A stretch of DNA of 64,000 nt, taken from positions 81,076-145,075 of the forward strand of contig JAFMHB010000003.1 in assembly GCA_017854795.1 (NCBI GenBank), written 5' to 3'. Under the pieces are notes generated by a model, which was given only the letters and a program-made list of their open reading frames with translations, made no database searches and was not told the origin of the DNA. The stretch is from Candidatus Nanopelagicales bacterium (GTDB taxonomy: Bacteria; Actinomycetota; Actinomycetes; S36-B12). Positions 2-23,209 of the stretch are shown here, piece by piece; position 1 is the stretch's first letter, and every line of letters starts with the position of its first letter. Both the position numbers and the translations under genes were made by a program.

Positions 2-781
2 GTCAAGGTTGGTCTCAAAGCCCAGTCGACGCATATTGTCCGCAGTGATGTCAACCGACGGCATCGAAGGACCGTTAGCCATCGGGCCCATTGCTGTATG
101 CAAGATATGAATCCCCGCTTTGGCAGCTGTGAGGTAGTTCAGGGTGCTGATCCCGGTCGTGTTGTGGAAATGTGCTTCCAGCGGGACCCCGTTAGCGGCC
201 TCAACCATGCGCGGTATCCAGGTTGCTGCACGCTCGGGTGAAAGCACGCCGGCTTCGTCACCCAAGATAATCGTTTCAGTACCCCAAGTAGACATTTCGC
301 GAACAATGTTTGCGTAGAAGTCGTCTGTGTGTACCGGCGAATCAGCGAACATAACTTGCGGAGCGGACTGTGCGCCTGCATCCTGAACGATGCCACTCAT
401 CCACTTCATTTCATCAAGGTTGAATAAGCAGTCGAAGATCCACATGCTGCCGATACCGTGCTTCACCAAAGTTCGAACCCACAGTTCCAAGATCGACCTC
501 GGTGTCAAGCCCATTCCGACAATGGCATTGGCTCGGGATCCAGCTCTCAGTCGACTCTTCGGCATGGCTGCTCGAATTAGGTCAAGACCCTCCCACGGAT
601 TTTCGCGGCAATAACGAACAAGGACTTCCATCAGACTGGAGCCGGTTAAGTCGACAATGTGATAACCCATGCTGTCTATGTCAGCGGCAATGGGAAGGCT
701 ATGACCCGCACGCATCCGCATACCCCACAGACTTTGTTGGCCATCGCGGAGGGTTTGGTCGATGAACTTGATTTCGGTCAC
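2..781 (-). CDS. Pyruvate carboxylase subunit B / oxaloacetate decarboxylase alpha-like carboxyltransferase, 5' part (runs off the left edge; absent from the ORF track)
   Basis: Hand translation from GTG at 781 (GTGA overlap with the accC stop) gives MTEIKFIDQTLRDGQQSLWGMRM...RENPWEGLDL...ETIILGDEAGVL...EAHFHN...MANGPSMP. The frame is open to the window edge and is a clear paralog of 6403..7863. Confidence 0.9.
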   Translation of the reverse strand, partial: MTEIKFIDQTLRDGQQSLWGMRMRAGHSLPIAADIDSMGYHIVDLTGSSLMEVLVRYCRENPWEGLDLIRAAMPKSRLRAGSRANAIVGMGLTPRSILELWVRTLVKHGIGSMWIFDCLFNLDEMKWMSGIVQDAGAQSAPQVMFADSPVHTDDFYANIVREMSTWGTETIILGDEAGVLSPERAATWIPRMVEAANGVPLEAHFHNTTGISTLNYLTAAKAGIHILHTAMGPMANGPSMPSVDITADNMRRLGFETNLD

Positions 782-2175
782 GATGGCATCTTCTCCTTGG
801 ATTCGTTGTCTTGGTTCTCGTTTGTCCAGCGGGGTAGGAAGTCCTGTTCGACCCACCGCGTGTGGTGTCGCTGTTGCGCGAAGTCTTGGTCTGCGACAAC
901 ACTGATCAGAAACTCTCGATTTGTTGTCACTCCATCGACTTTCAGGTGCTTGAGTGCCCGGCCCATTCGCGTTACCGCGTCACCGCGATCCGAGCCGTGC
1001 GTGAGCACCTTCGCGATCATCGAGTCGTAGTAGGGTGGAATCAGATATCCGCCGTAGACGTGGCTATCAACGCGGACCCCTCCTCCTTGAGGTGGAATCC
1101 ACTTTGTCACACGACCGGGCGCAGGCATGAAGTTATTTCGGGGGTCCTCAGCATTGACCCGGCACTCAATTGCATGGCCCGTGAGGTGGACCTCCGCTTG
1201 AGTAATCGACAGTGGCTCTCCCGCGGCAATACGCAACTGCTCGCGAACAATGTCAACTCCGGTAACGAGTTCGGTGACGGGGTGCTCAACCTGCACCCGC
1301 GTGTTCACTTCAAGAAAGGCGAACTCTCCCGTGATTGCGTCGACGACAAACTCAACAGTTGCAGCGCCTACGTAGTCCAGCGCCCGGCAGAGTTCAACAG
1401 CAGAAACATGCAGTGCCTCTCGCACCTCCAGTGGTATCGAAATAGCAGGAGCTTCTTCCACGACCTTTTGATATCGGCGCTGGGCCGAGCAGTCACGCTC
1501 ACCCAAGTGAATTACATGACCATGCATGTCGGCCAAGATTTGAACCTCTACGTGCCGCGCTTGTGTAATGAACTTCTCAACATAAACGCGACCGTCACCA
1601 AAGGCTTGCAGGGCTTCGTTGCTGGCTGATGCATACTTTTCATCAAGGTCGGAAAGCTCGTTGACAAGCACCATGCCACGACCACCACCGCCGGCCGCCG
1701 CCTTCAAGAGAACGGGTAACCCAATTGCCTCTACTTGGGTGCGCGCTGCCTCGAGACTTTCAAGTGCTGCGCTACCGGCACCGGTATTGATACCCACTGA
1801 CTCGGCCACAGCGCGTGCCTGAATTTTGTCCCCTCCTCGGCGAATTGTTTCACCTGAGGGTCCGATAAAAATAATTCCGTTTTCAACGCATGCATCAGCA
1901 AGTTCAGGGCGTTCCGCGAGGAAACCATACCCGGGGTGGAGCGCATCACAGCCGGTTGCAAGTGCTGCTTGCATTACCCGATTTATATCTAAATAACTTT
2001 CCGTCGAGGCCCCTGGGCCAATGCACACCACGTAGTCGGCCAAGTAGGCAGCCATACTCTCCCGATCAGCCTCGGACACGATTGCGACAGACTCCACACC
2101 TTCATCCGCGCATGCGCGAATGATGCGGACCGCAATCTCGCCGCGGTTTGCAACTAGGACTCTTCGAAGGGCCAT
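778..2175 (-). CDS. accC: Biotin carboxylase subunit
   Basis: VLVANRGEIAVRII, HPGYGFLAE, KAAAGGGGRGM, ERDCSAQRRYQK, EVNTRVQVEHPVTE and YYDSMIAK motifs. Confidence 0.95.
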   Translation of the reverse strand: MALRRVLVANRGEIAVRIIRACADEGVESVAIVSEADRESMAAYLADYVVCIGPGASTESYLDINRVMQAALATGCDALHPGYGFLAERPELADACVENGIIFIGPSGETIRRGGDKIQARAVAESVGINTGAGSAALESLEAARTQVEAIGLPVLLKAAAGGGGRGMVLVNELSDLDEKYASASNEALQAFGDGRVYVEKFITQARHVEVQILADMHGHVIHLGERDCSAQRRYQKVVEEAPAISIPLEVREALHVSAVELCRALDYVGAATVEFVVDAITGEFAFLEVNTRVQVEHPVTELVTGVDIVREQLRIAAGEPLSITQAEVHLTGHAIECRVNAEDPRNNFMPAPGRVTKWIPPQGGGVRVDSHVYGGYLIPPYYDSMIAKVLTHGSDRGDAVTRMGRALKHLKVDGVTTNREFLISVVADQDFAQQRHHTRWVEQDFLPRWTNENQDNESKEKMPS

Positions 2176-2183
2176 CGATGCCG

Positions 2184-2714
2184 CTACTCGTGTGGGCGAA
2201 TAACGACGAGGAGTTGTCCAAACTCGACCATCTGACCGTTATCCGGTTCAACAGCTACGACTGTGCCAGATACACCAGCCTTGACGTGGTTCATCAGTTT
2301 CATGACTTCGACGATCCCGACGGTATCTTCTGCGTCTACCTCTTGGCCGATGGTCACGAACTCGGGGGCCCCCGGCTGAGGTGAGCGCCAAAAAAGTCCC
2401 AGGGAAGGTGCCTTGACGCTATGGCCGTCTACCGAATTGCTGGCGACCGCGGGCTGACCAGCGCTCGAATGTGTCTCAACGTCAGACGCGGGGGTGGCAG
2501 CAGGGCTGTCCTGCGGAGCGGGAGTTGCAACGGGGGGAGGAGCTATCGTCTGGGAAACGGCAAGCCCTGAATTGCGGTCCGCAGAAACCTCGGGGGGGCG
2601 CCCTGTTCTGGTCAGTTCAAGGGTTGTATCTCCAATTCGAACGGACATTTCACCCCAGTCGGATGCATCAAAAGTAGCAACGAGCGCTTTGATATCTTCC
2701 GGGGTGAGGGCCAT
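2184..2714 (-). CDS. accB: Biotin carboxyl carrier protein
   Basis: EVMKLMN biotinylation motif and a Pro/Ala-rich linker. Start moved to ATG 2714 (GAAAGG RBS 6 nt upstream); 2720 is an alternative. Confidence 0.92.
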   Translation of the reverse strand: MALTPEDIKALVATFDASDWGEMSVRIGDTTLELTRTGRPPEVSADRNSGLAVSQTIAPPPVATPAPQDSPAATPASDVETHSSAGQPAVASNSVDGHSVKAPSLGLFWRSPQPGAPEFVTIGQEVDAEDTVGIVEVMKLMNHVKAGVSGTVVAVEPDNGQMVEFGQLLVVIRPHE

Positions 2715-2762
2715 GGCCATCCTTTCGACTTGGGTATCCACAGGATTCCCATAACTAACACA

Positions 2763-2775
2763 GAGGTCCGATGTT
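2763..2775. promoter_or_regulatory. Degenerate copy of the putative FadR/GntR operator (GAGGTCCGATGTT) in the accB/regulator divergent region
   Basis: The right half matches the AACATCNGATGTT palindrome seen at 9531 and 19428. Confidence 0.5.
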
Positions 2776-2868
2776 TGATGCATACTAGTGCCAGGGAGGA
2801 ACCAAGACAATGAGAACTCTAAAAATAGTCCGTTCGGCTTTCGCGGTCGCAAACCAGAATGAACGCGG

Positions 2869-3645
2869 ATGAGCGTCACCGACAGCACAATAGTTAAAAT
2901 TCGCGATCTGATCGTGAGTGGTCAAATCAAGCCAGGTGATCGTCTGCCCCCAGAGCAAGAACTCGCCCTCTCCATGGGAATCTCACGAAGTTCGCTTCGT
3001 GAAGCCGTCAAAGCACTGAGTCAGGCAAAAGTACTCGACGTACGACGAGGAGATGGCACCTATGTGACCAGCCTCGAGCCCCAATTGCTGTTGTCCGGAT
3101 TGTCCTTCGTCATTGATCTGATGGAAGACCGGACTCTCGCTGACATTTTTGAGGTCCGCAAACTCCTAGAACCATCGTCGACCGCCCTTGCTGCGCAGCG
3201 AATCACCGATGTGCAACTGGAGGAACTTCGAGCCAGCATGGTCTCAATGCGTGAGGCCCACGACCCAGAAGAACTCGTTATCCGCGATATGGACTTCCAC
3301 GCCCAGATTGCAGAGGCGACTGGTAACGCCAGCCTCTGCTCAATCCTTGATGCAATCTCTTCCCGTGCTGTACGTGCTCGCGTGTGGCGCGCCTCGATGG
3401 TCGGCATGAAAACGATGACGTTGTCAGCACACCAACTCATTCTTGAAGCCCTTACCGACCGTGACCCTTCGCTGGCGCACGCGGCCGCAACCGTCCATGT
3501 CTCGGAATCAGAACGTTGGTTAAATGAGCACCTCTCAGTGCAAAAGCCTCACGGAAAAGTACCTTCGCGCAGCAATACGCAAATTCACGGTGAGACCCAC
3601 ATGCAAATGACTCAGACCCCCGTTGAACAAGGAGCTGTAACGTGA
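2869..3645 (+). CDS. FadR/GntR-family transcriptional regulator (wHTH + FCD)
   Basis: GQIKPGDRLPPEQELA...ISRSSLREAVKAL...RRGDGTYV, plus FCD motif DMDFHAQIAEATGN. Confidence 0.95.
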   Translation: MSVTDSTIVKIRDLIVSGQIKPGDRLPPEQELALSMGISRSSLREAVKALSQAKVLDVRRGDGTYVTSLEPQLLLSGLSFVIDLMEDRTLADIFEVRKLLEPSSTALAAQRITDVQLEELRASMVSMREAHDPEELVIRDMDFHAQIAEATGNASLCSILDAISSRAVRARVWRASMVGMKTMTLSAHQLILEALTDRDPSLAHAAATVHVSESERWLNEHLSVQKPHGKVPSRSNTQIHGETHMQMTQTPVEQGAVT

Positions 3646-4880
3646 GTGATCCGATTGTCCTTTCTGGTGTGGGTATCACCCCATTCGGTCGGCAGCCCGA
3701 AGAAACAGTGGCATCATTGGCTGCTGCCGCTACGGCTGCAGCAATCCTTGACTCAGGGATTGCGCCAGCTGATATCGGGGTTGTTGTATTTGCAAACTCA
3801 ACTCAGGGGGCAATGGACGGGCAACATGGGATCCGCGGGCAGTTGGCCCTGTCCGGGATCGACCTCGGTGTTGTCCCGATTATCAATGTGGAAAACGCCT
3901 GCTGTAGCGCCACAACCGCACTTCAAGTTGCAACGGCCTACGTTCGCGCCGGAATGGCACGACATGCTTTGGTCGTCGGGTCCGAAGTGATGACCCAAGC
4001 AAAACCTGAAGCAATCCTGGCCGCCTTCGAGGGGAGTTGGGATGTCGCTCATCGCGATGAGAGCATTGCTCGGCTAACTGACTGGGGCAGCGGAACACCT
4101 GCACCCGCGGATGCCATCGAATTAGCCAGTCGCACAGTCTTCATGGACATATATGCCGCTTTTGCGCGTGATCATATGACCCGATTTGGGAGCACTGCCG
4201 AACAGTTTGCCGCCGTGAGCGCGAAGAATCACATGCACTCGGTTCACAACCCCAACGCTCAGTTCCAGAAGCCCTTCACGGTGGAGGAGATTCTGGCCAG
4301 CAAACAAGTTGTGTGGCCACTCACCGTTCCGATGTGCTCACCCATCAGTGATGGAGCAGCCGCAGCCGTGGTGTCACATCTCGCCGATGCAGCATCTCCT
4401 GACCGGGCCATTGTCATTCGCGGCATTGCCCTCGGACATGGAGGCGCTTGGGATGGTAAAGATCCCCAAGATCACGTCAGTCATCGCACGGCACTACGTG
4501 CTTATCAAGAAGCAGGCCTCACACCCGCGGACGTCGACGTCGCAGAAGTACATGACGCCACAGCGGTGGGTGAAGTTCAACAGATCGAACATATGGGACT
4601 TGTTCCCTATGGTGATGGCGGCGCGGCAGCACAGCGCGGCGATACAGCAATTGGAGGATCGATTCCTGTTAATCCTTCGGGAGGATTGGAATCACGCGGA
4701 CACCCAATTGGCGCGACCGGACTAGCACAAATTCATGAACTCGTCACTCAACTTCGGGGTGATGCGGGGGCGCGACAGGTTGACGGTGCGCGGATTGCGC
4801 TTGCTGAAAATAGTGGCGGACTTGTCGGGGTAGAGGAGGCCGCCGTGGCGGTGACGCTGCTCGAGGCGCGGGGCAAATGA
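3642..4880 (+). CDS. SCP-x/TioL-type thiolase family protein
   Basis: NVENACCSA (active Cys), AEVHDA, NPSGGLESRGHPIGATG. Confidence 0.9.
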   Translation: MSDPIVLSGVGITPFGRQPEETVASLAAAATAAAILDSGIAPADIGVVVFANSTQGAMDGQHGIRGQLALSGIDLGVVPIINVENACCSATTALQVATAYVRAGMARHALVVGSEVMTQAKPEAILAAFEGSWDVAHRDESIARLTDWGSGTPAPADAIELASRTVFMDIYAAFARDHMTRFGSTAEQFAAVSAKNHMHSVHNPNAQFQKPFTVEEILASKQVVWPLTVPMCSPISDGAAAAVVSHLADAASPDRAIVIRGIALGHGGAWDGKDPQDHVSHRTALRAYQEAGLTPADVDVAEVHDATAVGEVQQIEHMGLVPYGDGGAAAQRGDTAIGGSIPVNPSGGLESRGHPIGATGLAQIHELVTQLRGDAGARQVDGARIALAENSGGLVGVEEAAVAVTLLEARGK

Positions 4881-6406
4881 ACCTGGCGGAACTCCTGATT
4901 GCATCTGCTCGACGTGTCCCATTTTCAGTAGCACTAGTGTCGGGAAACCAACCCATCGCAACGTTTCGCAGTCTTGCTCAGCGGGTGGCTGGCCGAGCCC
5001 ACACCTTGACCAAACAACATGGCATCGGTCCTGGGCATCGGGTTGCAATTTATGCCGAGAACAGCCCTGATTACCTCGAGTACCTTCTCGCAATCTGGTG
5101 GACCGGTGCAACAGCTATCCCGATGAGCGCAATGCTGCACCCTCGTGAAGTAGTTGCATTACTCCTTGACTCACGGTCATCCCTCTGTCTTGTGTCAACG
5201 ATTAAAGCCAACGAGTTAGCGTCAGAGTTGGTCCCGTGCCTTGTGCTTGAATGCAGGGAAGTGAGAGTCGCGGACCACACCGACCCGCCGCGGGTAATGG
5301 AATCCTTTGATCCAGCTTGGATTTTCTACACGAGTGGGACCACCGGAACCCCCAAGGGTGCTGTCCTCACGCACGGCAACCTCATGGCAATGACTTTGGC
5401 TTATCTCAGTGATGTCGAACCCCTCGACGAACGTTCGGGGCTACTACATCTCGCTCTCATGAGCCATGCGGGTGGACTTTTTTCACTTCCTTTTATCGCT
5501 CGAGGGGGACGCCAGGTTGTACCTGAGTCGTGCACTGCCGATCCCGCCGAAACGTGGTCACTGCTCGCAGACCAGTCAGCCTTAAGTCTGTTCGCACCCC
5601 CGGTTCTTTTGCGGCGACTTGTTAATGCACCAGAGGCAGACCCAAGCGCGGCCGAGCACATGGGCACTGTCCTTGTTGGTGCAGCGCCGGTGCTGGTCAA
5701 CGACCTTGTAACGGGGGTCGAAGTGTTCGGTCCACGAATTTGGAATGGCTATGGTCAAGGTGAAACCCCGTGCACGATCACGGCCCTGGACGCACGCAGT
5801 ATCGGCAGCGCCGTTGCCACTTCAGACCTTGATCTGCTGCGCAGTGTCGGCTATCCACGAATCGGAACCGAGGTGCGCGTTGTTGACAACGACGCCCGTA
5901 CCTGTCCCGATGGGGAGCCCGGTGAAATCACGGTTCATGGACCCACCGTCATGTCGGGCTACTGGGACCGGCCAACCGCTACCGCAGAGGCGATCCGTGA
6001 TGGCTGGCTGCATACCGGCGATATCGGGGTGTTTCACAACGGAGCCCTCACCTTGCTCGACCGCAGTAAAGATCTCGTCATTACCGGTGGAGCCAATGTT
6101 TACCCCCGAGAAGTAGAAGATGTCCTCCTCTCGCATGACACCGTGACCGACGTCGCCGTGATAGGGATGCCCGATGACGAATGGGGTGAGCGTGTGGTGG
6201 CTTTCATTGTCCCCTCAATCGCCGGCAACATTTCAAAGACAGAACTTGACGCCTACTGCATTGCGAACATAGCCCGCTACAAACGCCCAAAGGAGTATCA
6301 CCAAGTCTCGACCCTTCCACGTAATGGGGCAGGGAAAGTCCTCAAAAACGAACTACGTGCAACCCTCACCGACTCAATTACCAGCCAAATTAAGGAGCAA
6401 CCATGA
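4877..6406 (+). CDS. Acyl/aryl-CoA ligase (AMP-binding)
   Basis: FYTSGTTGTPKG, GYGQGE, WLHTGDIG, and GKVLK with the catalytic Lys. Confidence 0.92.
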   Translation: MNLAELLIASARRVPFSVALVSGNQPIATFRSLAQRVAGRAHTLTKQHGIGPGHRVAIYAENSPDYLEYLLAIWWTGATAIPMSAMLHPREVVALLLDSRSSLCLVSTIKANELASELVPCLVLECREVRVADHTDPPRVMESFDPAWIFYTSGTTGTPKGAVLTHGNLMAMTLAYLSDVEPLDERSGLLHLALMSHAGGLFSLPFIARGGRQVVPESCTADPAETWSLLADQSALSLFAPPVLLRRLVNAPEADPSAAEHMGTVLVGAAPVLVNDLVTGVEVFGPRIWNGYGQGETPCTITALDARSIGSAVATSDLDLLRSVGYPRIGTEVRVVDNDARTCPDGEPGEITVHGPTVMSGYWDRPTATAEAIRDGWLHTGDIGVFHNGALTLLDRSKDLVITGGANVYPREVEDVLLSHDTVTDVAVIGMPDDEWGERVVAFIVPSIAGNISKTELDAYCIANIARYKRPKEYHQVSTLPRNGAGKVLKNELRATLTDSITSQIKEQP

Positions 6407-7863
6407 CCCACATTGATTTTCTTGACAGCACACTTCGTGACGGACAGCAAAGTTTGTGGGGCATGCGCATGCAAGCCGCTATGGCATTACCGGTGGCACC
6501 CATTTTGGATCGCGCCGGCTTCAAAGTAATTGACGCCGCCGCGAGTTCCTTCTTTGAAGTCCTCATCAAATACAAGCGTGAGAATCCATGGCAGGGACTG
6601 GATCTGTTGATGGGAGCTATCCGCCGTACGCCTGTGCGCGGTGGGATGCGCTCGAATGCGTGCATCAGCTTCGGGACAACTCCCGATGCGCTGATGGACA
6701 TCTGGATGCGGCAACTCAACGAGCACGGTGTCCGAAGCTACTGGATTTACGACGGGTTATTCAATATCGACAAGATGGCACGCCTTGCGCGAATTGCAAA
6801 GCAATACAATTCAGAAGTAGCTGGCACGGTCATTTTCGCCATGTCTCCTGTTCACACCGACGAGTACTACGCGGACAAAGTGCGCAAACTCGCAGCCATT
6901 CCCGAGGTTGACACGATTCTTCTTTATGACACCGCGGGTGTGCTTCATACCGACCGGTTACGAACACTTGTTCCGGCATTTGTGGAAAACGCCGGTGGCA
7001 AGCCGATCGAGATGCACTCCAATAACCTGATGGGTATCTCTGGAATGGCCTACTGTGAGGCTGTTCGCCTTGGCGTAAAAGTGCTGCACACGACAGTGCG
7101 CTCAATGGCGAACGGGCCATCAACTCCCAGTACCGAAAGCATGATTCGCAATATTGAACTTATGGGGTACACGCATTCGGTTAATGGTGCCCTGCTGGGA
7201 GCGGTCTCGGACCACTTCGAAAGGGTGGGAAAACAAGAAGGACACCTGGTAAATCAATTTGCCGAGTACGACCTTTTTAGTCTTCAACATCAGATTCCTG
7301 GCGGCATGACCGGCACGTTGAAAGCCCAACTCGAGCAGTACGGGATGACAGACCGCTTGGGAGAGGTGCTCGAAGAAACCGCTCGTGTTCGTCGCGAGTT
7401 GGGTTACCCAATGATGGTGACGCCATTTAGTCAGTTGGTCGGCATCCAAGCCGTACTCAACGTTGTTACCGGAAACCGCTACTCCGTTGTTCCCGACGAG
7501 GTCGTCCAGTACGCCGCGGGTTACTACGGGGAGACTCCGGCTCCCATTGAGCCAGACATTCTTGATCGCATTATGGCCGCTCCTCGAGCCGCGGAAATCT
7601 TTGCTAATCCGCCCGAGCAACCCACAGAGGATGAACTGCGCAAGAAGTTTGGGACTACAGACGACGACGAGTTGGTCCTGAAGGCATTGGTACCGCAGTT
7701 TGACCTTGACGCAATGTATGCCGCCGGCCCGACCAAACGTGACTATCCACTCGCAAGCTCCGAGGTGCTGCAGGTTCGGCAACTGGTCTCCGCCATCAAC
7801 GCGCCCTACGCCCGCGTTGCAACGGAGTCAATGGACATCGTGCTCCGCAGGTCGGGTGCATAA
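6403..7863 (+). CDS. Pyruvate carboxylase subunit B-like carboxyltransferase without its own biotinyl domain
   Basis: DSTLRDGQQSLWG, RENPW, HQIPGGM, ELGYPMMVTPFSQ. The canonical KDMAG is replaced by YDTAG and HxH by HSN. Confidence 0.88.
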   Translation: MTHIDFLDSTLRDGQQSLWGMRMQAAMALPVAPILDRAGFKVIDAAASSFFEVLIKYKRENPWQGLDLLMGAIRRTPVRGGMRSNACISFGTTPDALMDIWMRQLNEHGVRSYWIYDGLFNIDKMARLARIAKQYNSEVAGTVIFAMSPVHTDEYYADKVRKLAAIPEVDTILLYDTAGVLHTDRLRTLVPAFVENAGGKPIEMHSNNLMGISGMAYCEAVRLGVKVLHTTVRSMANGPSTPSTESMIRNIELMGYTHSVNGALLGAVSDHFERVGKQEGHLVNQFAEYDLFSLQHQIPGGMTGTLKAQLEQYGMTDRLGEVLEETARVRRELGYPMMVTPFSQLVGIQAVLNVVTGNRYSVVPDEVVQYAAGYYGETPAPIEPDILDRIMAAPRAAEIFANPPEQPTEDELRKKFGTTDDDELVLKALVPQFDLDAMYAAGPTKRDYPLASSEVLQVRQLVSAINAPYARVATESMDIVLRRSGA

Positions 7864-7873
7864 GAACCTGGGT

Positions 7874-8614: not shown

Positions 8615-8637
8615 ATTTCACTCCTCGGTTGGTCAAC

Positions 8638-15863: not shown

Positions 15864-15865
15864 CA

Positions 15866-16471
15866 CTACTCCTGACGTGTACGGCCGAGCATGCGGAGAA
15901 GATCCTCATGCAACTCGAACCAAACGGTGTGGTAACTATCGATACGGACGCCACTAACCCAATCAATTTCCCCTGCAAGCACTCGGTCGTAGGCTGATTC
16001 AAGTCGTTCGAGATACCTCGTCAATCGAGGCTGGGCCTCTGCGCAGCGACCGACTACTCGCTCGGCTCGCTCGTGAAGGTCGCCAAGTCGGTCGATAATC
16101 CCATTGTCATAATCCTTATCTTCATGATCATTGGGGATCCGAGTTGAACCCGTCGGCACGGTCTGCCAATCGGTAAACAGGGCCAGCAGTCCGGTGTTCA
16201 CTTTTTCAAACCGTTCATAAGCAGCGGTTAAGGCGCCGTCCTCACGGGCCGCCGCGAAGACAATCGGGTATTGGGCTGCAAGCATGGTTTGGCCATCAGG
16301 GGCAACCATGTACGTTCCTCGAGCACCAGCGACTAAACCTTTACCTGCAGCGGCCTCTAGCGCGGCGGTCACTTCTTCTTCATTGAGCCCCAGCAGATCC
16401 GCAACAGCCGCCGGCCCCGCCGCCTTGCGAACTGCCAATCCGTGAACTGCTAAAAATTCGATGTCGGTCAT
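15866..16471 (-). CDS. Rv1126c-like protein (N-terminal wHTH + conserved helical domain), partner of the truncated PPDK
   Basis: The C-terminal IDSYHTVWFELHEDLL and TDWQ..PNDH.D..YD motifs match my recollection of M. tuberculosis Rv1126c. Start at ATG 16471 (GAAGGA RBS); the stop abuts the PPDK-like start. Confidence 0.75.
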   Translation of the reverse strand: MTDIEFLAVHGLAVRKAAGPAAVADLLGLNEEEVTAALEAAAGKGLVAGARGTYMVAPDGQTMLAAQYPIVFAAAREDGALTAAYERFEKVNTGLLALFTDWQTVPTGSTRIPNDHEDKDYDNGIIDRLGDLHERAERVVGRCAEAQPRLTRYLERLESAYDRVLAGEIDWVSGVRIDSYHTVWFELHEDLLRMLGRTRQE

Positions 16472-16664
16472 ATTGCCGTCCTTCAAGAGATTCGATTCCG
16501 ATTCAGTTTTACACATTAAGTTGAAGTGCATCATTGTGTTATGAACTCGTCCAGGAAATCGGAAAATCAGTGTGTTATTCCACACACCCATTCGATAATG
16601 GGATTCTCGTATTTCTCGATCGCTCTTGTGGCAAGAACATAATTTTTTATTCTATTGCGTTAAA

Positions 16665-16692
16665 ACTAACGTATGTTAGTCTAGCGTATGTT
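16665..16692. promoter_or_regulatory. Palindrome ACTAAC-GTAT-GTTAGT plus a tandem partial copy, TetR-like operator candidate
   Basis: Sits in the AT-rich divergent region between the Rv1126c-like gene and the acyl-CoA dehydrogenase. CTAACGTATGTT is repeated as CTAGCGTATGTT 15 bp downstream. Confidence 0.5.
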
Positions 16693-16733
16693 TTGAAGGT
16701 TTACCGTCATTGCTCTCGAAAGGACAATCGTTA

Positions 16734-17879
16734 ATGAAGCGCACCATTTTCAACGAGGACCACAATGCCTTTCGAAAAAGTTCTCGGGCATTCGTCGAGC
16801 GAACCCTTGAGCCCGGTTACGGATCATTTGTTGATAACAAGGAGATCTCGAGAGAAGTTTGGATTGAAGCCGGACGCAATGAACTCTTAGGCCTCGATGT
16901 TCCGGAAGAGTTTGGTGGTGTCGATGCTGGGGACTACCGTTTCAATGCGGTACTAGGAGAAGAACTCGCTCGTGCCTCGATGGCATTCAACTCATGCTTC
17001 CAGATGCACTTCGATGTGACACTTCCTTACATCGTTAAGTACGGGACTACCGAGCAGAAACAACGCTGGTTGCCAGGAGCGTGTTCGGGAGAGATTCTTA
17101 CTACGGTGGCAATGACTGAGCCCTCCGGTGGGTCTGATCTTGCCGCCCTTCGCTCAAGCGCAGTGCAATCCGGTACAGACTGGATAATCAATGGCTCCAA
17201 GACTTTCATTACAAACGGCTACACGGCCGACTTGGTTGTTGTTGCAGTCAAAACCAGTCCCGACAAGGGCGCAAAAGGGATCACCTTATTTGCGGTAGAG
17301 GATGGGATGCCTGGTTTCGAGCGCGGACGAAAACTTGACAAGGTCGGGCAGCCGGAAGCCAATACTGCTGAACTGTTTTTCCAAGATGTACGAGTCCCTG
17401 CCGAAAACATCATCGGTGAAGTAGATCGTGGATTCATTCAGATGATGGAGCAACTGCCGCAAGAGCGAATTGGTGCGGCCGTAGGTAACCTCGCCCATGT
17501 TGCCGCGATCCTTGATGAGACCCTCGAGTACGCCAAAGAGCGTCAGGCTTTCGGCCAGTCAATTGGCTCTTTCCAACACAATAAGTTCTTGCTGGCTGAG
17601 CTGTACACCCGAATTGAAGTGAGTCAGGTGTATGTCGACGCTTGTGTATTGGCCCACTCGGAGGGAGAGCTCTCTGCGGTTGACGCCGCCAAAGTGAAGT
17701 ACTGGACAGCAGATGTCCAAAATGATGTGCTCGATGCTTGTGTACAGCTCTACGGTGGTTACGGCTACATGCGCGAATATCGGGTGGCTCAAGCCTGGAT
17801 GGATGCCCGGGTAACCAAGATCTGGGGAGGCACTAATGAAATCATGAAGGAAATAATTGGGCGAGATTTAGGCCTCTAA
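16734..17879 (+). CDS. Acyl-CoA dehydrogenase (long-chain-specific/FadE20-like)
   Basis: AMTEPSGGSDL, NGSKTFITNG, ERQAFGQ, QLYGGYGYM, IWGGTNEIM. Start at ATG 16734. Confidence 0.93.
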   Translation: MKRTIFNEDHNAFRKSSRAFVERTLEPGYGSFVDNKEISREVWIEAGRNELLGLDVPEEFGGVDAGDYRFNAVLGEELARASMAFNSCFQMHFDVTLPYIVKYGTTEQKQRWLPGACSGEILTTVAMTEPSGGSDLAALRSSAVQSGTDWIINGSKTFITNGYTADLVVVAVKTSPDKGAKGITLFAVEDGMPGFERGRKLDKVGQPEANTAELFFQDVRVPAENIIGEVDRGFIQMMEQLPQERIGAAVGNLAHVAAILDETLEYAKERQAFGQSIGSFQHNKFLLAELYTRIEVSQVYVDACVLAHSEGELSAVDAAKVKYWTADVQNDVLDACVQLYGGYGYMREYRVAQAWMDARVTKIWGGTNEIMKEIIGRDLGL

Positions 17880-17928
17880 CGCTAGTAAGCAACCACACAA
17901 TTTCATTCAAACTCAACCAAGGAATCCC

Positions 17929-18666
17929 ATGCCAAACTTGACTTTTAACTTCACGCAACAAACAGTGATAGTTACCGGGGCCGCACGCGGCGTCGGGCTT
18001 GAACTCGCTCGATTCTTTGCTGAGGCCGGTGCCGATGTTGTGGCCGTCGACTTCGATGGTGATGTCCTAGCAAGTGCGGTAGCCGATTTCAACGCCTTTG
18101 CTATCCAGGCCGATGTCAGCAACACCGTTGACGTCCAGCGCGTTGTTGACGCCACTGTCAATAAATTTGGTCAAATAGATGTTTTGGTCAACAACGCCGG
18201 AATTCTCCGGGATGGTGTTCTGTGGAAGATGACCGATGAGGATTGGGATGCAGTCTTGGCAGTTCATGCTGGTGGCACTTTCAAGTTCACACGTGCTTGT
18301 GTCCCACATTTTCGCGCCCGATCCTACGGACGAATCATCAACGTCACCTCCTACACCGGATTGCGTGGCAACACCGGACAGGCCAACTACGCCACCGCGA
18401 AGGCTGGGATCATTGGATTTACAAAAACTGCCGCAAAAGAACTGGCACGTTTCGGGATTTCTGTCAATGCGATCTCACCGAACGCGGAGACGCGCATGGT
18501 TGCAGCGATTCCGCCAGAAAAATTAGCTGAACTCGCAGCGACAATTCCCATGGGTCGTTTTGCACAACCGTCAGAAATGTGTGCAGCCGTGGGTTTCCTG
18601 GCGTCAGACGTCTCGGGTTACATTACAGGCGTGGTTTTACCTGTTGATGGTGGAATTTCAATGTAA
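17929..18666 (+). CDS. 3-oxoacyl-ACP/CoA reductase (FabG-like SDR)
   Basis: TGAARGVG, NNAGILRD, GNTGQANYATAK. Confidence 0.9.
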   Translation: MPNLTFNFTQQTVIVTGAARGVGLELARFFAEAGADVVAVDFDGDVLASAVADFNAFAIQADVSNTVDVQRVVDATVNKFGQIDVLVNNAGILRDGVLWKMTDEDWDAVLAVHAGGTFKFTRACVPHFRARSYGRIINVTSYTGLRGNTGQANYATAKAGIIGFTKTAAKELARFGISVNAISPNAETRMVAAIPPEKLAELAATIPMGRFAQPSEMCAAVGFLASDVSGYITGVVLPVDGGISM

Positions 18667-18672
18667 GTGTGG

Positions 18673-19416
18673 TCAGTCTGAAATAAGAACTTGCCGTAAA
18701 ACTTCAAGGGTGTCTTTGGAAACCCCGATGGATTGCAGATATTTATCTCCCGACCCATACTCGCTATAGAGTCCATCGAGGAAACCGCTCATGGTCTCCG
18801 GGGCAGAGTCTTGAACCCCCGTCGGTTGTTTATCTAGGTACTTGCCGTAACTCTTGAGGCGCAGTAACCGAGCGTGCACGAGCGGATAAGTTTCACGGGA
18901 TCGCACATAATCAGCAACAATGGCTTCACGCTGAACATTGATTGCATCCAGGATCACCGCAACTACAACGCCAGTTCGATCCTTGCCAGCCGCGCAATGA
19001 ACGACTGCGGGAAGACCCTCGCTCGCGAGCACTTCAGCGATAGTTCCGAAGGAATCGCTACTCACTGTGAGAAACCCTAAATAGTGCGGCACCAACATTT
19101 CTGGGGTGATCAACGGGACGGCTGTTCCAGGAACACTGGGATCCACACTGATCAGAGGTACGTTCACATGCCGGACTTCGCTGTGATTTTCCAGAGAGCC
19201 GCGACCCTCACGGACGACCTCCCCCTCAAGCCGGAGGTCGATCACGGTTCGAAGACCGACTTCATTCGCCAACCGATGGGCATCGGAATTATCAATTTCC
19301 TGCAAGGTGTCACTGCGAAAGATGCGGCCTGCTCTCACCCGACTACCTCGTGTTGTTGGCAGCCCGCCAAGATCGCGCCAGTTGTATGCCTGTTGGGGTG
19401 TCCATGACGTATCCAT
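18673..19416 (-). CDS. Tyrosine-phosphatase family protein (IphP/MptpB-like)
   Basis: NWRDLGG, IFRSD, VIDLR and the P-loop HCAAGKDRTG. Start moved to ATG 19416 (TATACT -10 box 7 nt upstream). Confidence 0.9.
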   Translation of the reverse strand: MDTSWTPQQAYNWRDLGGLPTTRGSRVRAGRIFRSDTLQEIDNSDAHRLANEVGLRTVIDLRLEGEVVREGRGSLENHSEVRHVNVPLISVDPSVPGTAVPLITPEMLVPHYLGFLTVSSDSFGTIAEVLASEGLPAVVHCAAGKDRTGVVVAVILDAINVQREAIVADYVRSRETYPLVHARLLRLKSYGKYLDKQPTGVQDSAPETMSGFLDGLYSEYGSGDKYLQSIGVSKDTLEVLRQVLISD

Positions 19417-19427
19417 CTTCTCCAGTA

Positions 19428-19440
19428 TACATCTGATGTT
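19428..19440. promoter_or_regulatory. TACATCTGATGTT, putative FadR/GntR operator over the phosphatase promoter
   Basis: Same ACATCTGATGT core as 9531; overlaps the minus-strand -10 box (19424-19429). Confidence 0.65.
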
Positions 19441-19573
19441 TCTATGCGTTGGATTCCACAACCGACTAGACTCAAACAAGATTAACCCTAAAATTTGCCC
19501 CGAAGGTCCTACGGCTGAAAACTTCTGTCTGTGGCTTTCGCAGGCCCTTTCCACATCATGAGGAGAAAACATT

Positions 19574-20728
19574 ATGCGTGACGCAGTCATCGTCGGAGCT
19601 GTTCGCAGTCCCATTGGAGTTGGCAAGCCCGAGAAGGGGTCACTGAGTGGCATCAACCCGGTTGACCTCTCTGCAATGGTGCTTGAAGGACTGATGGCAC
19701 GCACGGGAGTGGACCCCGCTTTGGTCGACGACGTCATTTGGGGATGTGTCTCCCAAGTTGGCGAACAATCATTTAACATCGGTCGAAACGCGGCGCTTGC
19801 TGCCGGTTTCCCCGAGTCAGTACCGGGCGTGACCGTGGATCGCCAGTGTGGATCGAGTCAGCAGGCAGCACACTTCGCAGCTGCAGGAGTTATTGCCGGC
19901 CAGTACGACATGGTGATCGCCGGTGGCGTTGAGTCAATGTCCCGAGTCCCCATGTTTTCAAACACGGTGGGTGGCGACGGTCCTTTCGGGCCGCGCATGT
20001 TGGATCGCTACGAAAACAATCTCGTCCCACAGGGAATCAGCGCCGAGATGATCGCCACTAAGTGGGGTCTTTCGCGAACTGACCTTGACGAACTCGCGGT
20101 GGCTTCCCATGCGCGCGCAACAGCAGCCACTGAATCTGGAATCTTTGGTGAAGAGATCATCCCAATAACCACCGCGGCCGGAATTGTTTCAACTGACCAA
20201 GGAATCCGTCCCGGTACTAGCTTGGAGGGACTCGCCGCGCTAAAGACCCCGTTCCAAGAAGGTGGAGTTGTCACTGCAGGTAACGCCTCCCAAATATCCG
20301 ACGGTGCAGCAGCCCTACTCATCACAACATCTGAGCGAGCTGCCGAATTGGGACTCACACCACTAGCCCGATTCCACACCTTCGCACTTGCCGGAGTAGA
20401 TCCGGTAATTATGCTGACGGGTCCCATTCCGGCAACCCAAAAAGTTCTACAACGTAGCGGCCTGTCCATCTCAGACATTGGTGCCTTCGAAGTTAACGAG
20501 GCTTTTGCTTCCGTGCTGGGAGCCTGGCTAAAAGAGACGGGGGCTTCACACGAGTTGACCAACATCAATGGAGGCGCCATGGCACTTGGTCACCCACTCG
20601 GTGCTTCCGGGGCGCGGGTAATGACCACGCTCGTGCACCAGATGCGCCGAAGCGGAGCTCGTTATGGACTGCAATCAATCTGTGAGGGTGGCGGCATGGC
20701 GAATGCCACAATCCTCGAGCTTCTGTAG
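19574..20728 (+). CDS. Acetyl-CoA acyltransferase (thiolase II/FadA type)
   Basis: DRQCGSSQQA, EVNEAFAS, GHPLGASG, ICEGGG. Confidence 0.93.
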   Translation: MRDAVIVGAVRSPIGVGKPEKGSLSGINPVDLSAMVLEGLMARTGVDPALVDDVIWGCVSQVGEQSFNIGRNAALAAGFPESVPGVTVDRQCGSSQQAAHFAAAGVIAGQYDMVIAGGVESMSRVPMFSNTVGGDGPFGPRMLDRYENNLVPQGISAEMIATKWGLSRTDLDELAVASHARATAATESGIFGEEIIPITTAAGIVSTDQGIRPGTSLEGLAALKTPFQEGGVVTAGNASQISDGAAALLITTSERAAELGLTPLARFHTFALAGVDPVIMLTGPIPATQKVLQRSGLSISDIGAFEVNEAFASVLGAWLKETGASHELTNINGGAMALGHPLGASGARVMTTLVHQMRRSGARYGLQSICEGGGMANATILELL

Positions 20729-20730
20729 GG

Positions 20731-21516
20731 GTGTCCAAGATGACCAACAAGGTCTACGCCAGTGCTGCCGAGGCACTCTCCGATATCAGCAACGGCGCAA
20801 CTATTGCTGTTGGAGGCTTTGGCCTGTGTGGCATTCCCAGTGTGCTTATCAATGCGCTTCTACAGTTAGCACCAAAAGACTTGCAGGTGGTGAGCAACAA
20901 CTGTGGCATTGATGATTGGGGGCTCGGCCTACTACTTCGAGCTGGCCTTATCTCGCGAATGACTTCTTCTTATGTTGGGGAAAACAAAGAGTTCGAGCGT
21001 CAATACCTTTCCGGTGAGCTCGAGGTCGAACTCGTACCGCAAGGAACCCTCGCCGAACGTTTGCGGGCCGGTGGCGCCGGGATTCCGGCCTTCTACACGC
21101 CAGCGGGTGTCGGAACTTTAGTCGCTGAAGGCGGAATGCCACTGCGTTACAACTCAGATGGCTCAGTGGCAATTGAGTCCGCACCCAAAGTTGTCGGAAC
21201 ATTCGACCTCGAGGGCGTACCCAACGAGTACGTTCTTGAACACGGCATTCGCACCGACTTCTCCCTAGTTCGAGCAAGTATTGGTGACACCGCAGGCAAC
21301 TTGGTTTTCCACCGAAGTACCAGAAATTTTAACTCGCTGGCTGCAGCGGCGGGGCGAATCACAATCGCCGAGGTAGAGGATCTTGTGGAGCCGGGGCAGA
21401 TCGACCCCGAACTCGTCCACACGCCAGGAATCTTTGTTCAGCGCATCGTTCCGCTCAATGCGGAACAGGCTGCCGACAAGCGAATCGAACGTCGCACACT
21501 GAGGAGTACCCCATGA
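20731..21516 (+). CDS. scoA: 3-oxoacid CoA-transferase subunit A
   Basis: [37 protein letters not shown]. Confidence 0.92.
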
Positions 21517-22163
21517 GTTGGACTCGAGAGCAGATGGCCGTCCGGGTAGGTCAAGAGCTTCAGGACGGGCAGTATGTAAACCTTGGAATTGGCCTCCCAA
21601 CGCTCATCCCCAACCACCTTCCGTCCGGTGTGAATGTGATTTTGCAGAGCGAGAATGGCATCTTGGGTACCGGGGCTTATCCCGATGAAAATGAAGTCGA
21701 CGCCGACCTCATCAATGCGGGCAAAGAAACCGTTACCGTCCTTCCGGGGGCATCATTTTTCGACTCAGCAACTAGTTTCGCGATGATCCGCGGCGGCCAT
21801 ATCGATGCCGCTGTCCTCGGCGCAATGCAAGTTTCCACGGATGGTGACCTTGCTAACTGGATGATCCCCGGCAAGATGGTTAAAGGCATGGGTGGTGCAA
21901 TGGATTTGGTTCACGGTGCTAAGAGAGTGATAGTGATGATGGAACACACTGCCAAAGACGGGAGTCACAAGATCGTCGATACCTGTGACCTTCCGCTTAC
22001 TGGCCGGAAGGTTGTTCATCGGATCATTACAGACTTAGCCGTTATTGACGTTACACCGGAAGGTCTCGTCCTTCGGGAGACCGCACCCGGTGTAGATCTC
22101 GAGCAGGTTCAGTCCGCAACAGGACCTACCTTGATCATTGCCGAGAGTTACAGGCAGGCATGA
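21513..22163 (+). CDS. scoB: 3-oxoacid CoA-transferase subunit B
   Basis: [16 protein letters not shown] (catalytic Glu), KGMGGAMDL. Confidence 0.93.
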
Positions 22164-23209
22164 GTAACTTGCCATCAGCCAGTTTTAAGATCGACGCAAA
22201 CTTCGGCACTGGAGCTACGGGCGACATCCAAGACATTCGGGATTTGGCAATATCCGCGCAAAGATCAGGATTTAATGCGATCTGGTCCTCCGAGGCGAAA
22301 CACGATCCATTCCTCCCTTTACTCGTTGCCGCAGAAGCCACAAGCACTCTCACTGTGGGTACATCTATCGCCGTCGCCTTCGCTCGCTCCCCGATGACCC
22401 TCGCCCAGACAGCCTACGACCTTCAGTCACTCACCAAGGGACGGTTCGTGCTCGGGCTCGGCAGCCAAGTGAAACCCCACATCCAAAGACGATTCTCTAT
22501 GCCCTGGAGTGAACCAGCTCCACGAATGCGCGAATACGTTCAAGCACTCAAAGCCATCTGGTCCGCATGGCAAGAGGGGACACCATTGCGCTTTGTTGGG
22601 GAGCACTATAAACACACACTGATGACACCGTTTTTTGCCCCCGACTCACATCCGTACGGCCCACCGCCCGTCTACGTCGCTGCCGTTGGATCAGTTATGA
22701 CCAAGGTTGCGGGTGAAGTAGCCGACGGCGTGATTTTGCACGGCTTCACAACTCGCCGCTACATCAAAGAGGTCTCACTTCCCGCCGTTTCGGCGGGCCT
22801 GAAGCAAGGGGATCGCGAGGAAGGCGCTTGCGCCATAAGCCTCATGGGTTTCGTAGTTAGCGGAGATACCAGTGAAGAAATGGATCGGGCCGCAGCAGCC
22901 GTTCGACAGCAAATCGGTTTCTACGGCAGTACACCGGCTTACCGTCCCGTGCTCGAACTACATGGTTGGGGTGAACTAGCCGACACACTTTCCGGCCTCG
23001 CACGTGAAGGTGGTGACGCTTGGGCGACTATGGGAGAACATATCCCCGATACGGTGCTGGAACAGTTTGCGGTGATTGCCCCTCGCAATGAGTTAGCAGA
23101 GGCAATCACCCAACGGTTCGAAGGTGTTCTCGACCGGTTCTCCTTCTATGTTCCCTACCAAGTTGCCAATGGTTTTTGGGACCCGGTCGTTCGCGACTTG
23201 CGCGCTTAG
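22160..23209 (+). CDS. LLM-class, probably F420-dependent oxidoreductase (TIGR03617-like)
   Basis: [48 protein letters not shown]. Confidence 0.85.

Follow-up and report, generated by a model that had tools for sequence, protein, structure and literature searches.

A freshwater actinobacterial gene island proposed to degrade a ketone by phosphorylation-primed, biotin-dependent carboxylation

Ketones are chemically inert and few strategies for their activation are known, and the question raised here is whether a catabolic gene island of a Candidatus Nanopelagicales bacterium encodes a further one. The island fills the left 23 kb of a 64,000-nucleotide stretch of DNA (contig C27, positions 81076-145075, from a genome of 2.36 Mb in 60 contigs that is 99.5% complete), which we refer to as the window, and brings together genes for a biotin-dependent carboxylase, a set of proteins around a short pyruvate phosphate dikinase (PPDK), a CoA ligase, thiolases and a phosphatase. 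We consider it probable (roughly 60%) that the core of the island degrades a ketone by phosphorylation-primed, biotin-dependent carboxylation. This reading was reached in silico from gene content, homology, conserved linkage, gene fusions and a predicted interface between the short PPDK and a protein of 201 aa; each chemical step, the substrate and which of phosphatase and carboxylase acts first are inferences drawn from these.

Phosphorylation, carboxylation and dephosphorylation in succession are established for HpeHI/HpeCBA/HpeD (PMC9618137) and for AcvAB/AcvCDE/AcvF (bioRxiv 10.1101/2022.04.28.489975). HpeCBA accepts the ketone for carboxylation only in its phosphorylated form, and HpeD takes the phosphate off the product (PMC9618137); the steps proposed here were ordered after this precedent. 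Short-chain dehydrogenases/reductases (SDRs) or alcohol dehydrogenases (ADHs) would oxidise a secondary alcohol to the ketone, and a four-protein phosphotransferase derived from PPDK would phosphorylate the substrate. Within this machine the short PPDK would move phosphate from ATP onto His433 and then swing it onto the 201-aa protein, which would work with a 524-aa protein and a second His carrier of 232 aa. Biotin carboxylase (BC) and biotin carboxyl carrier protein (BCCP) would make carboxybiotin, and two carboxyltransferases (CTs), CT1 and CT2, would transfer CO2 to the carbon adjacent to the carbonyl, yielding a beta-keto acid. A phosphatase of the protein tyrosine phosphatase (PTP) type would then take the phosphate off, an AMP-forming ligase would produce the beta-ketoacyl-CoA, and a thiolase, either SCP-x type or classical, would give acetyl-CoA and an acyl-CoA. 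The genes concerned, called from the open reading frame (ORF) listing of the window together with Pfam and NCBIfam searches, are the following.

2-856, minus strand: CT1, PycB/OadA-type carboxyltransferase; N-terminal 285 aa of 509, PF00682 and PF02436 on the full-length gene (L001:827-2356, minus strand)
778-2175, minus strand: BC; NF006367 at 612 bits (cut-off 597), Biotin_carb_N, CPSase_L_D2 and Biotin_carb_C
2184-2888, minus strand: BCCP; PF00364, TIGR00531 at 110.9 bits, slightly below the cut-off of 115.2, biotinylation motif VEVMKLMN; likely true start near 2720
3642-4880, plus strand: SCP-x/lipid-transfer-type thiolase; PF22691 Thiolase_C_1 and Thiolase_N, NF006102 and NF004720 at about 273 bits
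4877-6406, plus strand: AMP-forming acyl-CoA ligase; PF00501 and PF13193
6403-7863, plus strand: CT2, second PycB/OadA-type carboxyltransferase paralog; PF02436 and PF00682
9725-10423, plus strand: 232-aa phospho-His carrier; PF00391, PEP-utilizers mobile domain at residues 143-207
10441-12015, plus strand: 524-aa protein of an undescribed family; no Pfam or NCBIfam match
12101-12853, plus strand: SDR2, candidate secondary-alcohol dehydrogenase; PF13561 and PF00106
14109-15866, minus strand: short PPDK, 585 aa; PF01326 and PF00391 only, NF004531 at 673.9 bits (cut-off 456)
15866-16471, minus strand: 201-aa protein of an undescribed family; no family match, ORF as listed continuing to 16591
18673-19779, minus strand: Y_phosphatase3 (PTP-type) phosphatase; PF13350 at 180 bits, CX5R motif HCAAGKDRT intact; likely true start M122, near 19416

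Do these genes belong together? A search for relatives of the 524-aa protein across 185,579 species genomes gave 168 stretches encoding one. All island proteins were compared by tblastn with 80 loci around such relatives, gene calls in high-GC loci being guided by a GC3 filter and tblastn anchoring; 43 of the loci have at least 7 kb on either side of the 524-aa gene and are referred to as full-flank loci. The His carrier is present in 43/43 of these, and its gene adjoins the 524-aa gene in 78 of the 80 loci. The 201-aa gene follows with 41/43, a CoA ligase with 39/43, the short PPDK with 38/43 and a thiolase with 37/43 (SCP-x type in 35), while a CT and an SDR2-type SDR were each found in 30/43, BC in 21/43 and BCCP in 17/43. 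The clustering of the core genes is far beyond chance, and on the full-flank counts the core comprises the four kinase-like genes, the carboxylase, the ligase and the thiolase.

Several organisms carry the set as a compact operon. Acidithrix ferrooxidans PY-F3 has a single operon in the order BCCP, BC, CT, His carrier, 524-aa gene, ligase, 201-aa gene, short PPDK, thiolase and PTP, flanked by divergently transcribed SDR, SCP-x thiolase and GntR genes. On the Rhodococcus plasmids pRB98 (R. oxybenzonivorans S2-17) and pA (R. pyridinivorans P23) the order is His carrier, 524-aa gene, ligase, 201-aa gene, PPDK, BCCP, BC, CT, OB fold, thiolase and PTP, followed by a SRPBCC protein; the annotations there read 'PEP-utilizing enzyme', hypothetical (525 aa), AMP-binding protein, hypothetical (202 aa), 'pyruvate, phosphate dikinase', biotin/lipoyl protein, BC, carboxyltransferase, OB-fold protein, thiolase and 'tyrosine-protein phosphatase', the last being 40% identical to the island phosphatase on pRB98. 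The gene set is also one operon in a cultured Pseudonocardia and is clustered on a Novosphingobium resinovorum megaplasmid. Regarding the overall distribution, carriers among the Actinomycetota belong to Nanopelagicales, Mycobacteriales, Pseudonocardiaceae, Geodermatophilaceae, Acidimicrobiia and Thermoleophilia; outside this phylum there are some Alpha- and Gammaproteobacteria, and plasmids of Rhodococcus and Novosphingobium carry the set as well. In 5/5 Thermoleophilia genomes checked, no BC lies near the kinase module and a BC-CT1-like pair is found elsewhere in the genome; in 3/5 this pair shares a contig with the CT2-type gene, at a distance of 24-30 kb. A third CT stands beside a thiolase, and a BCCP fragment lies at the locus edge in 3/5 genomes, a layout that fits one BC/BCCP serving several CT subunits. 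The CT2-type gene always follows a ligase of the type encoded at 4877-6406, and this pair is conserved in the Thermoleophilia loci.

Metatranscriptome contigs with 95-100% identity cover 24, 21, 11 and 17 of 30 bins of window 1-20000 (libraries X14, X16, X17 and X18, from four studies), and one contig of 2,409 nt, spanning 9680-12066, joins the His-carrier gene to the 524-aa gene. As DNA carry-over is not excluded and contigs cannot rank genes, transcription is no more than weakly indicated, and uncovered parts of the island do not speak for silence.

How would the substrate be phosphorylated? The dikinase module seen in the earlier note on this DNA is present, in the corrected form of four genes in two pairs, His carrier with 524-aa protein and 201-aa protein with short PPDK. 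The catalytic-His motif is kept in both swivel domains, as GGTIRSHLGILTRE in the 232-aa carrier and as GGSTSHAAVV in the short PPDK. By Pfam the latter consists of an ATP-grasp and a swivel His domain and lacks the phosphoenolpyruvate (PEP)/pyruvate-binding domain. A canonical three-domain PPDK of 912 aa is encoded on contig C19 of the same genome, and the short PPDK, 39% identical to it, is by homology a specialised paralog. These two observations argue against the idea that the island holds a split pyruvate carboxylase or oxaloacetate decarboxylase and a PPDK acting at the PEP-pyruvate-oxaloacetate node, with the ligases and thiolases as unrelated neighbours, and the tight linkage of just these two gene types to the module counts against it as well. 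The names that NCBIfam would assign, 'pyruvate, phosphate dikinase' and 'pyruvate carboxylase subunit B', would be in its favour; the carboxyltransferases, discussed below, bear on it from both sides.

Neither the 524-aa nor the 201-aa protein matched any Pfam or NCBIfam family even at E<=1, and a PDB sequence search returned nothing usable for either. We found 1007 homologues of the former, the best 120 at >=58% identity, and 1961 of the latter, with a typical length of 201 aa. Three of the kinase parts are connected by naturally occurring fusions. One chain comprises the 524-aa and 201-aa proteins in two representatives of 726 and 728 aa (P0241 and P0242, from an exhaustive HMMER search) and in a gammaproteobacterial locus (L069), and in P0291, P0335 and L085:2841-4778 a 524-like domain carries the His domain at its N-terminal side. 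The structure of the fusion P0241 was predicted with a pLDDT of 91.2 and a pTM of 0.78. Foldseek found 0 PDB matches at E<=0.001 for the whole model, and VIA-align wide matched only residues 520-724, to MarR-like winged helix-turn-helix domains and helical bundles with Z values of about 10-12. In the model the 201-aa part is a MarR-like winged helix followed by a four-helix bundle; as these searches covered the fusion as a whole, no new fold can be claimed for the 524-aa part. A first AF2 model of the 524-aa protein from an 18-row alignment had a mean pLDDT of 55.3 and was not used. ESM Atlas hits were discarded for both proteins: those for the 201-aa protein were solely its own unannotated clusters, and those for the 524-aa protein were GH18-like clusters at 0.83-0.85, which is chance level.

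The 201-aa family has four invariant His residues, H10, H116 (within an NDHSD motif), H181 and H188. When the short PPDK and the 201-aa protein were predicted as a complex, three runs gave ipSAE values of 0.80, 0.81 and 0.80, the best of 3 controls reaching 0.00; the ipSAE mark is reached by 116/157 solved complexes and 2/215 mismatched pairs, a calibration that is only rough with custom alignments. The runs agree in >=91% of contacts with a partner pLDDT of >=88. The predicted interface takes in PPDK residues 427-441 around His433 as well as residues 96-127 and 173-189 of the 201-aa protein, which form the invariant His/Asp patch. Such an arrangement fits a 201-aa protein that stands in for the absent PEP/pyruvate domain and gives the swivelling phospho-His a place to dock, and we predict it to be the docking partner of the PPDK His domain, while the 524-aa protein is proposed as the substrate-side subunit of the phosphotransferase.

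Relatives of these proteins occur in further settings. In a second catabolic region of the same genome (contig C54; L099 1-20000, L100 1-14000) a 201-like protein is encoded beside an 861-aa PPDK-like protein that retains the PEP-binding domain, together with two 583-aa PpsA/HpeH-like proteins with a C-terminal His domain, a Rieske oxygenase, an OYE-type reductase, a Y_phosphatase3, a HAD protein, LLMs, SnoaL proteins, a ligase and an acyl-CoA dehydrogenase (ACAD). Contig C8 holds two further His-domain matches, each within a 589-aa open frame; stop codons (2 TAA, 1 TAG) are reported in the matched part. Phosphorylation by His-swivel kinases, in partnership with PTP-type phosphatases, seems to be a recurrent device of this small genome. 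Upstream of the operon, two Rhodococcus loci (L085:1537-6001 and L087:58-2855) carry a paralogous three-gene set of a 442-aa 524-like protein, a His-domain/524-like fusion of 645 or 542 aa and a protein of 381-389 aa with a weak DUF7065 match; a 371-aa homologue of this DUF7065-like protein lies between CT and BCCP in a gammaproteobacterial locus that has no short PPDK.

Is the carboxylase that of a known pathway? CT1 and CT2 share 44% identity, and both, CT1 at full length, have the PF00682 plus PF02436 architecture of pyruvate carboxylase (PC), OadA and 5S. The best PDB matches of CT2 are PycB, OadA and 5S (phmmer E-values 9e-64 to 9e-51), which would suit an enzyme of central metabolism; the CT scores, however, are far under all NCBIfam equivalog cut-offs (e.g. 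326 bits against 402 for NF006761). As Hpe/Acv-type references we used CTs from plasmid clusters syntenic with the published pathways, which stand in for the true HpeB, AcvE and XccA. These were a Rhizobium plasmid cluster with genes for PpsA-like, PpsB-like, BCCP, BC, CT, HAD, acetoacetate-CoA ligase and amidohydrolase proteins, a Rhodococcus sp. plasmid cluster of the same order (canonical hpeHICBADEF), and two clusters with a Tm-1-like (MarK-type) kinase. In blastp CT1 and CT2 are 32-37% identical to the Hpe/Acv-type CTs, 28-30% to Salmonella OadA and 47% to the CT of Rhodococcus pRB98; for BC and BCCP the identities to the Hpe/Acv-type proteins are 47-50% and 30-35%.

For a tree of the CTs, 53 CT places were located by tblastn in 84 loci and 50 uninterrupted ORFs of >=400 aa kept (IQ-TREE, LG+C20+F+G4 by PMSF, 61 rows, midpoint root, one OadA). 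Such a phylogeny had been suggested in the earlier note, and it places the module CTs in a clade of their own (52 rows, UFBoot 100 / SH-aLRT 99) beside the separate clade of the stand-in Hpe/Acv-type CTs (100/100), with OadA as the most distant row. Fifty-one of the 52 module-clade CTs come from loci that hold the 524-aa gene, the exception being a Rhodococcus opacus plasmid. The two clades and one Sulfitobacter row are joined at 99/95. CT1 falls into subclade C2a and CT2 into subclade C3 (27 rows, 100/100). CT-BCCP-BC clusters that have no kinase (Burkholderia, Cnuibacter, Arthrobacter) branch outside both the module and the Hpe/Acv clades.

The placement of the CTs bears directly on the suggestion that the island is simply the Hpe/Acv/Xcc pathway in orthologous form, with 4-hydroxyacetophenone or acetovanillone as its substrate. 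Both share their general logic and a PycB-type carboxylase in three parts (PMC9618137); a PTP-type enzyme would suit an aryl phosphate, and lignin- or humic-derived phenolic ketones would be plausible in lakes. The island CTs, however, lie outside the well-supported Hpe/Acv clade. In comparisons with the PpsA-like/PpsB-like pair and a MarK-type protein only the His domains match, at 35-38% over 75-110 residues: the 524-aa protein has no blastp match to the PpsA-like (HpeH/AcvA-type) protein, and the short PPDK matches it solely over the His domain of about 75 residues. His domains aside, the blastp hits listed for 15 proteins from the window and upstream included none to the PpsB-like, MarK, HAD, AcsA-like or amidohydrolase references. 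Judged by homology only the carboxylase is related to Hpe/Acv, the kinase, phosphatase, ligase and cleavage enzyme not being orthologous. Furthermore, no ring-cleavage, 4-hydroxybenzoate or vanillate genes were seen in the island in Pfam searches of the window and the upstream region. Together with the active-site differences described next, these findings make a plain orthologue very unlikely, and the CT clades, the BC/CT homology and the non-orthologous kinase, phosphatase, ligase and thiolase support the view taken in the earlier note that the route is related to, and distinct from, Hpe/Acv/Xcc.

We compared the aligned CT positions that we take to be the metal ligands of PC/OadA, namely the Asp of an RD motif, the carbamylated Lys and HxH, and in addition the catalytic Thr. 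The RD motif and the first His are conserved in the module CTs, and the Thr position is kept in 61/61 CTs. The Lys column is K in 9/9 rows outside the module clade (OadA 1, kinase-less 3, Hpe/Acv-type 4, Sulfitobacter 1). Within the module clade Glu replaces it in all 20 rows of C1 and C2b (Mycobacteriales-type 11/11; Acidithrix/Pseudonocardia/gamma 9/9), Gly with a Glu two residues on in 4/5 C2a rows including CT1, the fifth C2a row having Glu, and Tyr in 27/27 C3 (CT2-type) rows. CT1 keeps HxH and Thr. An Arg that presumably contacts the carboxylate of pyruvate, the anionic group of the substrate, in PC is kept in most module-clade rows and is Thr in 4/4 Hpe/Acv-type rows. Retention of this Arg would suit an enzyme acting on pyruvate; the lost Lys speaks against it, and all in all we regard a function at the PEP-pyruvate-oxaloacetate node as extremely improbable.

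The kinase-less clusters mentioned above keep the canonical Lys in their PycB-type CTs. That of Cnuibacter (plasmid, L092) adjoins scoAB with a thiolase and BioY; that of Burkholderia (plasmid, L091) adjoins genes for acetoacetate decarboxylase, an acetate symporter, carbonic anhydrase and biotin synthesis; the third is on an Arthrobacter plasmid (L097). They are candidates for a biotin-dependent carboxylase of small, acetone-like ketones, an enzyme not known in the literature.

Several findings weigh against a phosphorylation-primed carboxylation as proposed here. The carbamylated-Lys position is lost in 52/52 module-clade CTs (E, G or Y) and the second His is Asn in 27/27 CT2-type rows, so that canonical CT catalysis cannot be assumed. 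Y_phosphatase3 is present in 9/43 full-flank loci, 13/43 have no CT within 10 kb of the 524-aa gene, and gammaproteobacterial metagenome-assembled genomes (MAGs) hold versions without the short PPDK. Searches with the P0241 model did not identify the fold of the 524-aa part. The ligases are by their homology generic AMP-binding enzymes, and nothing in the sequence identifies the substrate.

The same enzymes might also act in another way. The PPDK-derived machine would then treat the ketone as PPDK treats pyruvate, placing the phosphate on the enol oxygen, and the Lys-less CT would carboxylate the enol phosphate with release of phosphate; the system would be a biotin-dependent functional analogue of the acetone and acetophenone carboxylases, the phosphatase being an accessory or a proofreader. 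The ATP-handling subunit as a true PPDK paralog by its NF004531 score and its identity to the canonical enzyme, the absence of the phosphatase from 34/43 full-flank loci, the remodelled metal site of the module-linked CT clade and the mostly retained Arg, which is lost in the Hpe/Acv-type rows, all agree with this. The same applies to the use of one kinase for two CT-ligase-thiolase sets, which fits recognition of a shared carbonyl and not of a remote hydroxyl. Enol phosphates are, moreover, the proposed intermediates of the Acx and Apc carboxylases (PMC13677872). On the other hand, a PTP is encoded in the compact operons of Acidithrix, Pseudonocardia and several Mycobacteriales, which argues for a stable phosphate ester. 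To our knowledge no biotin enzyme uses an enol phosphate. We hold this alternative to be unlikely, and the more specific version, in which the four-protein machine turns an unactivated methyl ketone into the enol phosphate that is carboxylated by the CT clade without the carbamylated Lys, is likewise a tentative suggestion with the odds against it. Such a methyl ketone might be small and abundant, possibly acetone, butanone or a carotenoid- or terpenoid-derived ketone in lake water.

For the preferred reading, phosphorylation followed by biotin-dependent carboxylation and dephosphorylation, the gene content gives some hints about the substrate. The presence of two CT-ligase-thiolase sets alongside a single BC/BCCP and a single kinase points to two related substrates. 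With regard to the phosphorylated position, the PTP-type phosphatase encoded in the compact operons speaks for a stable ester on a remote hydroxyl, the situation in Hpe, while the PPDK ancestry, the single kinase for two CT sets and the many loci that have no phosphatase speak for an enol phosphate on the carbonyl. A bulky group is suggested by the SCP-x-type thiolases with OB-fold partners, the SRPBCC proteins and the generic ligases of medium-chain/aromatic type; scoAB, the classical thiolases and the acetoacetate-decarboxylase-family genes of the island and of Thermoleophilia suggest small beta-keto acids as well. So far, biotin-dependent ketone carboxylation has been documented for 4-hydroxyacetophenone-type compounds only (PMC13677872, PMC9618137, PMC12624787).

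The remaining genes of the island within the window are listed below.

2869-3645, plus strand: GntR/FCD regulator, opening the plus-strand operon; PF00392 and PF07729
7874-8614, minus strand: SDR1; PF13561 and PF00106
8563-9531, plus strand: EamA/DMT transporter; PF00892
12843-14030, minus strand: MFS transporter; PF07690
16710-17879, plus strand: ACAD; Pfam ACAD N, M and C domains
17929-18666, plus strand: FabG-like SDR (SDR3); PF13561 and PF00106, NF004198 at 258.9 bits (cut-off 296)
19574-20728, plus strand: degradative thiolase (thl2); Thiolase_N and Thiolase_C, TIGR01930 at 458.7 bits
20731-21516, plus strand: 3-oxoacid CoA-transferase A, scoA; TIGR02429 at 235.8 bits, above cut-off
21513-22163, plus strand: 3-oxoacid CoA-transferase B, scoB; TIGR02428 at 335 bits, above cut-off
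22160-23209, plus strand: F420-dependent LLM-class oxidoreductase; TIGR03617 at 463 bits (cut-off 278)

All gene types named in the earlier note are thus present where it had placed them, as judged from ORFs, Pfam and NCBIfam. Adjacent genes of the plus-strand run from GntR/FCD through the SCP-x thiolase and the ligase to CT2 overlap by 4 nt. Of the genes counted in the note, scoAB, the LLM, the MFS transporter and EamA do not accompany the core in other genomes. EamA was found in 1/43 full-flank loci (7/80 loci, all close relatives), the LLM in 1/43 (1/80, at 39% identity), the MFS transporter in 0/43 (2/80) and scoA in 0/43, neither scoA nor scoB being present in any of the 80 loci; they are local, lineage-specific additions and not part of the core. 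GntR was found in 10/43 and thl2 in 7/43 full-flank loci, and the ACAD in 5/43, conserved only in close relatives. SDR1 has matches of >=40% identity in 12/80 loci.

How far does the island reach, and how common is it? The left boundary at base 2 given in the earlier note is an artefact of the window. The CT1 gene is cut by the left edge, with a likely true start at about 781, directly after the BC stop, and the island extends >=18 kb further upstream. The 20 kb upstream of the window (L005) contain the remainder of CT1, which totals 509 aa, a further ligase and thiolase, three SDRs, a Zn-ADH, another Y_phosphatase3 and an ABC transporter of the Liv type. Three acetoacetate-decarboxylase-family genes (PF06314) are also located there (L005:8766-9575, 11054-11932 and 15778-16548, i.e. 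18.5-3.5 kb before the window), and a similar gene follows the BC-CT1-like pair in a Baekduia genome (L102). GC content over the island stretch of about 40 kb is 0.52-0.56 and slightly raised against 0.524 for the genome, and in a check for mobile-element boundaries no tRNA was found within window 1-32000. To the right of the island (23206-25545) GC falls to about 0.50; this part encodes a 252-aa protein without family, a DUF805 membrane protein (24064-24447) and a 347-aa protein with a weak GNAT match.

The nearest public loci are Candidatus Nanopelagicales MAGs from lakes, with protein identities of 98-90%. Island DNA (window 1-20000) was found at 86-89% identity in 4/21 other genomes of the genus, so that 5/22 carry the island when the window's own genome is counted. 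The remaining 17/21 genomes, 6 of them >=90% complete, gave no island-length match, three of the 17 showing just a match of 300-430 bases at 68-71% identity. The 524-aa gene is present in 3/21 other genomes of the genus, the contig of the fourth island-bearing genome breaking at that gene, and in 0/19 genomes from other genera of the order. No full-length orthologue turned up in 400 further genomes sampled evenly from the phylum; six of these encode paralogs of the 524-aa protein, about 33% identical and alignable only over query residues 14-355. The island is an accessory, optional trait in a minority of strains of a freshwater actinobacterial genus, which is a further point against a place in central metabolism. 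Three MAG contigs titled 'Bifidobacterium breve' (L006, L018 and L022) carry the island with 73-98% protein identity to the window and cluster with Nanopelagicales, and the organism label of these records looks wrong.

The island would define a further kinase type, after the PpsAB-like and the Tm-1-like (MarK) ones, joined to a separate clade of biotin-dependent CTs with a rebuilt metal site. It offers a testable role for two sizeable families of 'hypothetical' proteins and for the truncated 'PPDK' family NF004531, and cultured, genetically tractable carriers are available for finding the substrate. With regard to lake ecology, the island marks the ability to use an optional carbon source, confined to a minority of strains in a genus with small genomes (about 2.4 Mb). 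If the enol-phosphate alternative were true, acetone and acetophenone carboxylase would for the first time have a biotin-dependent counterpart, and the phospho-His swivel mechanism would be put to a new use, its substrate side being formed by two new folds or families.

How does the island compare with known systems? Our literature search found no description of this operon and turned up only papers on Hpe/Acv/MarK, on acetone carboxylase or on unrelated subjects. The terms 'tyrosine phosphatase', 'pyruvate phosphate dikinase', 'Pseudonocardia' and 'Amycolatopsis' are absent from the supplement text of PMC9618137, although some of these clusters might appear as partial hpe homologues in its figure S5 or in the datasets of PMC12624787. 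Closest in logic are Hpe of Rhodococcus rhodochrous GD02 (hpeHICBADEF), Acv of Sphingobium SYK-6 (acvABCDEF with vceAB), XccABC of Aromatoleum aromaticum EbN1 and the MarK-kinase variant of Novosphingobium. A kinase, ATP- and biotin-dependent ketone carboxylation by separate BC, BCCP and PycB-type CT, and the later sequence of phosphatase, CoA ligase and cleavage to acetyl-CoA and an acyl product are common to the island and Hpe/Acv/Xcc. In contrast to Hpe and Acv, the island has a four-protein PPDK-derived set and neither PpsAB-like HpeHI/AcvAB nor Tm-1-like MarK, a PTP-type phosphatase (Y_phosphatase3) in place of a HAD (NagD-like) enzyme, generic AMP-binding instead of AcsA-like ligases, a thiolase for C-C cleavage instead of a CouO-type amidohydrolase or VceB, and CTs of a separate clade that have lost the carbamylated Lys.

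The ATP-grasp domain and the GGxTSHAAVV swivel domain are shared with PPDK and the PpsAB/CreHI/rifampin-phosphotransferase class, and the catalytic His is likewise borne by a second carrier. Unlike PPDK (EC 2.7.9.1), the island protein is without the PEP-utilizers_C PEP/pyruvate TIM-barrel domain, and its His domain is predicted to dock on a winged-helix/four-helix-bundle protein of 201 aa that is elsewhere fused to the 524-aa protein. With PycB, OadA alpha and 5S the island CTs have the HMGL-like TIM barrel and the PYC_OADA domain in common, from which they differ by the rebuilt metal site and by having no fused BCCP. Acx and Apc of the hydantoinase family carry out a similar net reaction, in which ketone, bicarbonate and ATP give a beta-keto acid that is activated with CoA and thiolysed, whereas they show no homology to the island enzymes and use no biotin. 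The island thus follows a known logic and has a homologous carboxylase, whereas its kinase architecture, which rests on two undescribed protein families, is new and its carboxyltransferases form a clade of their own.

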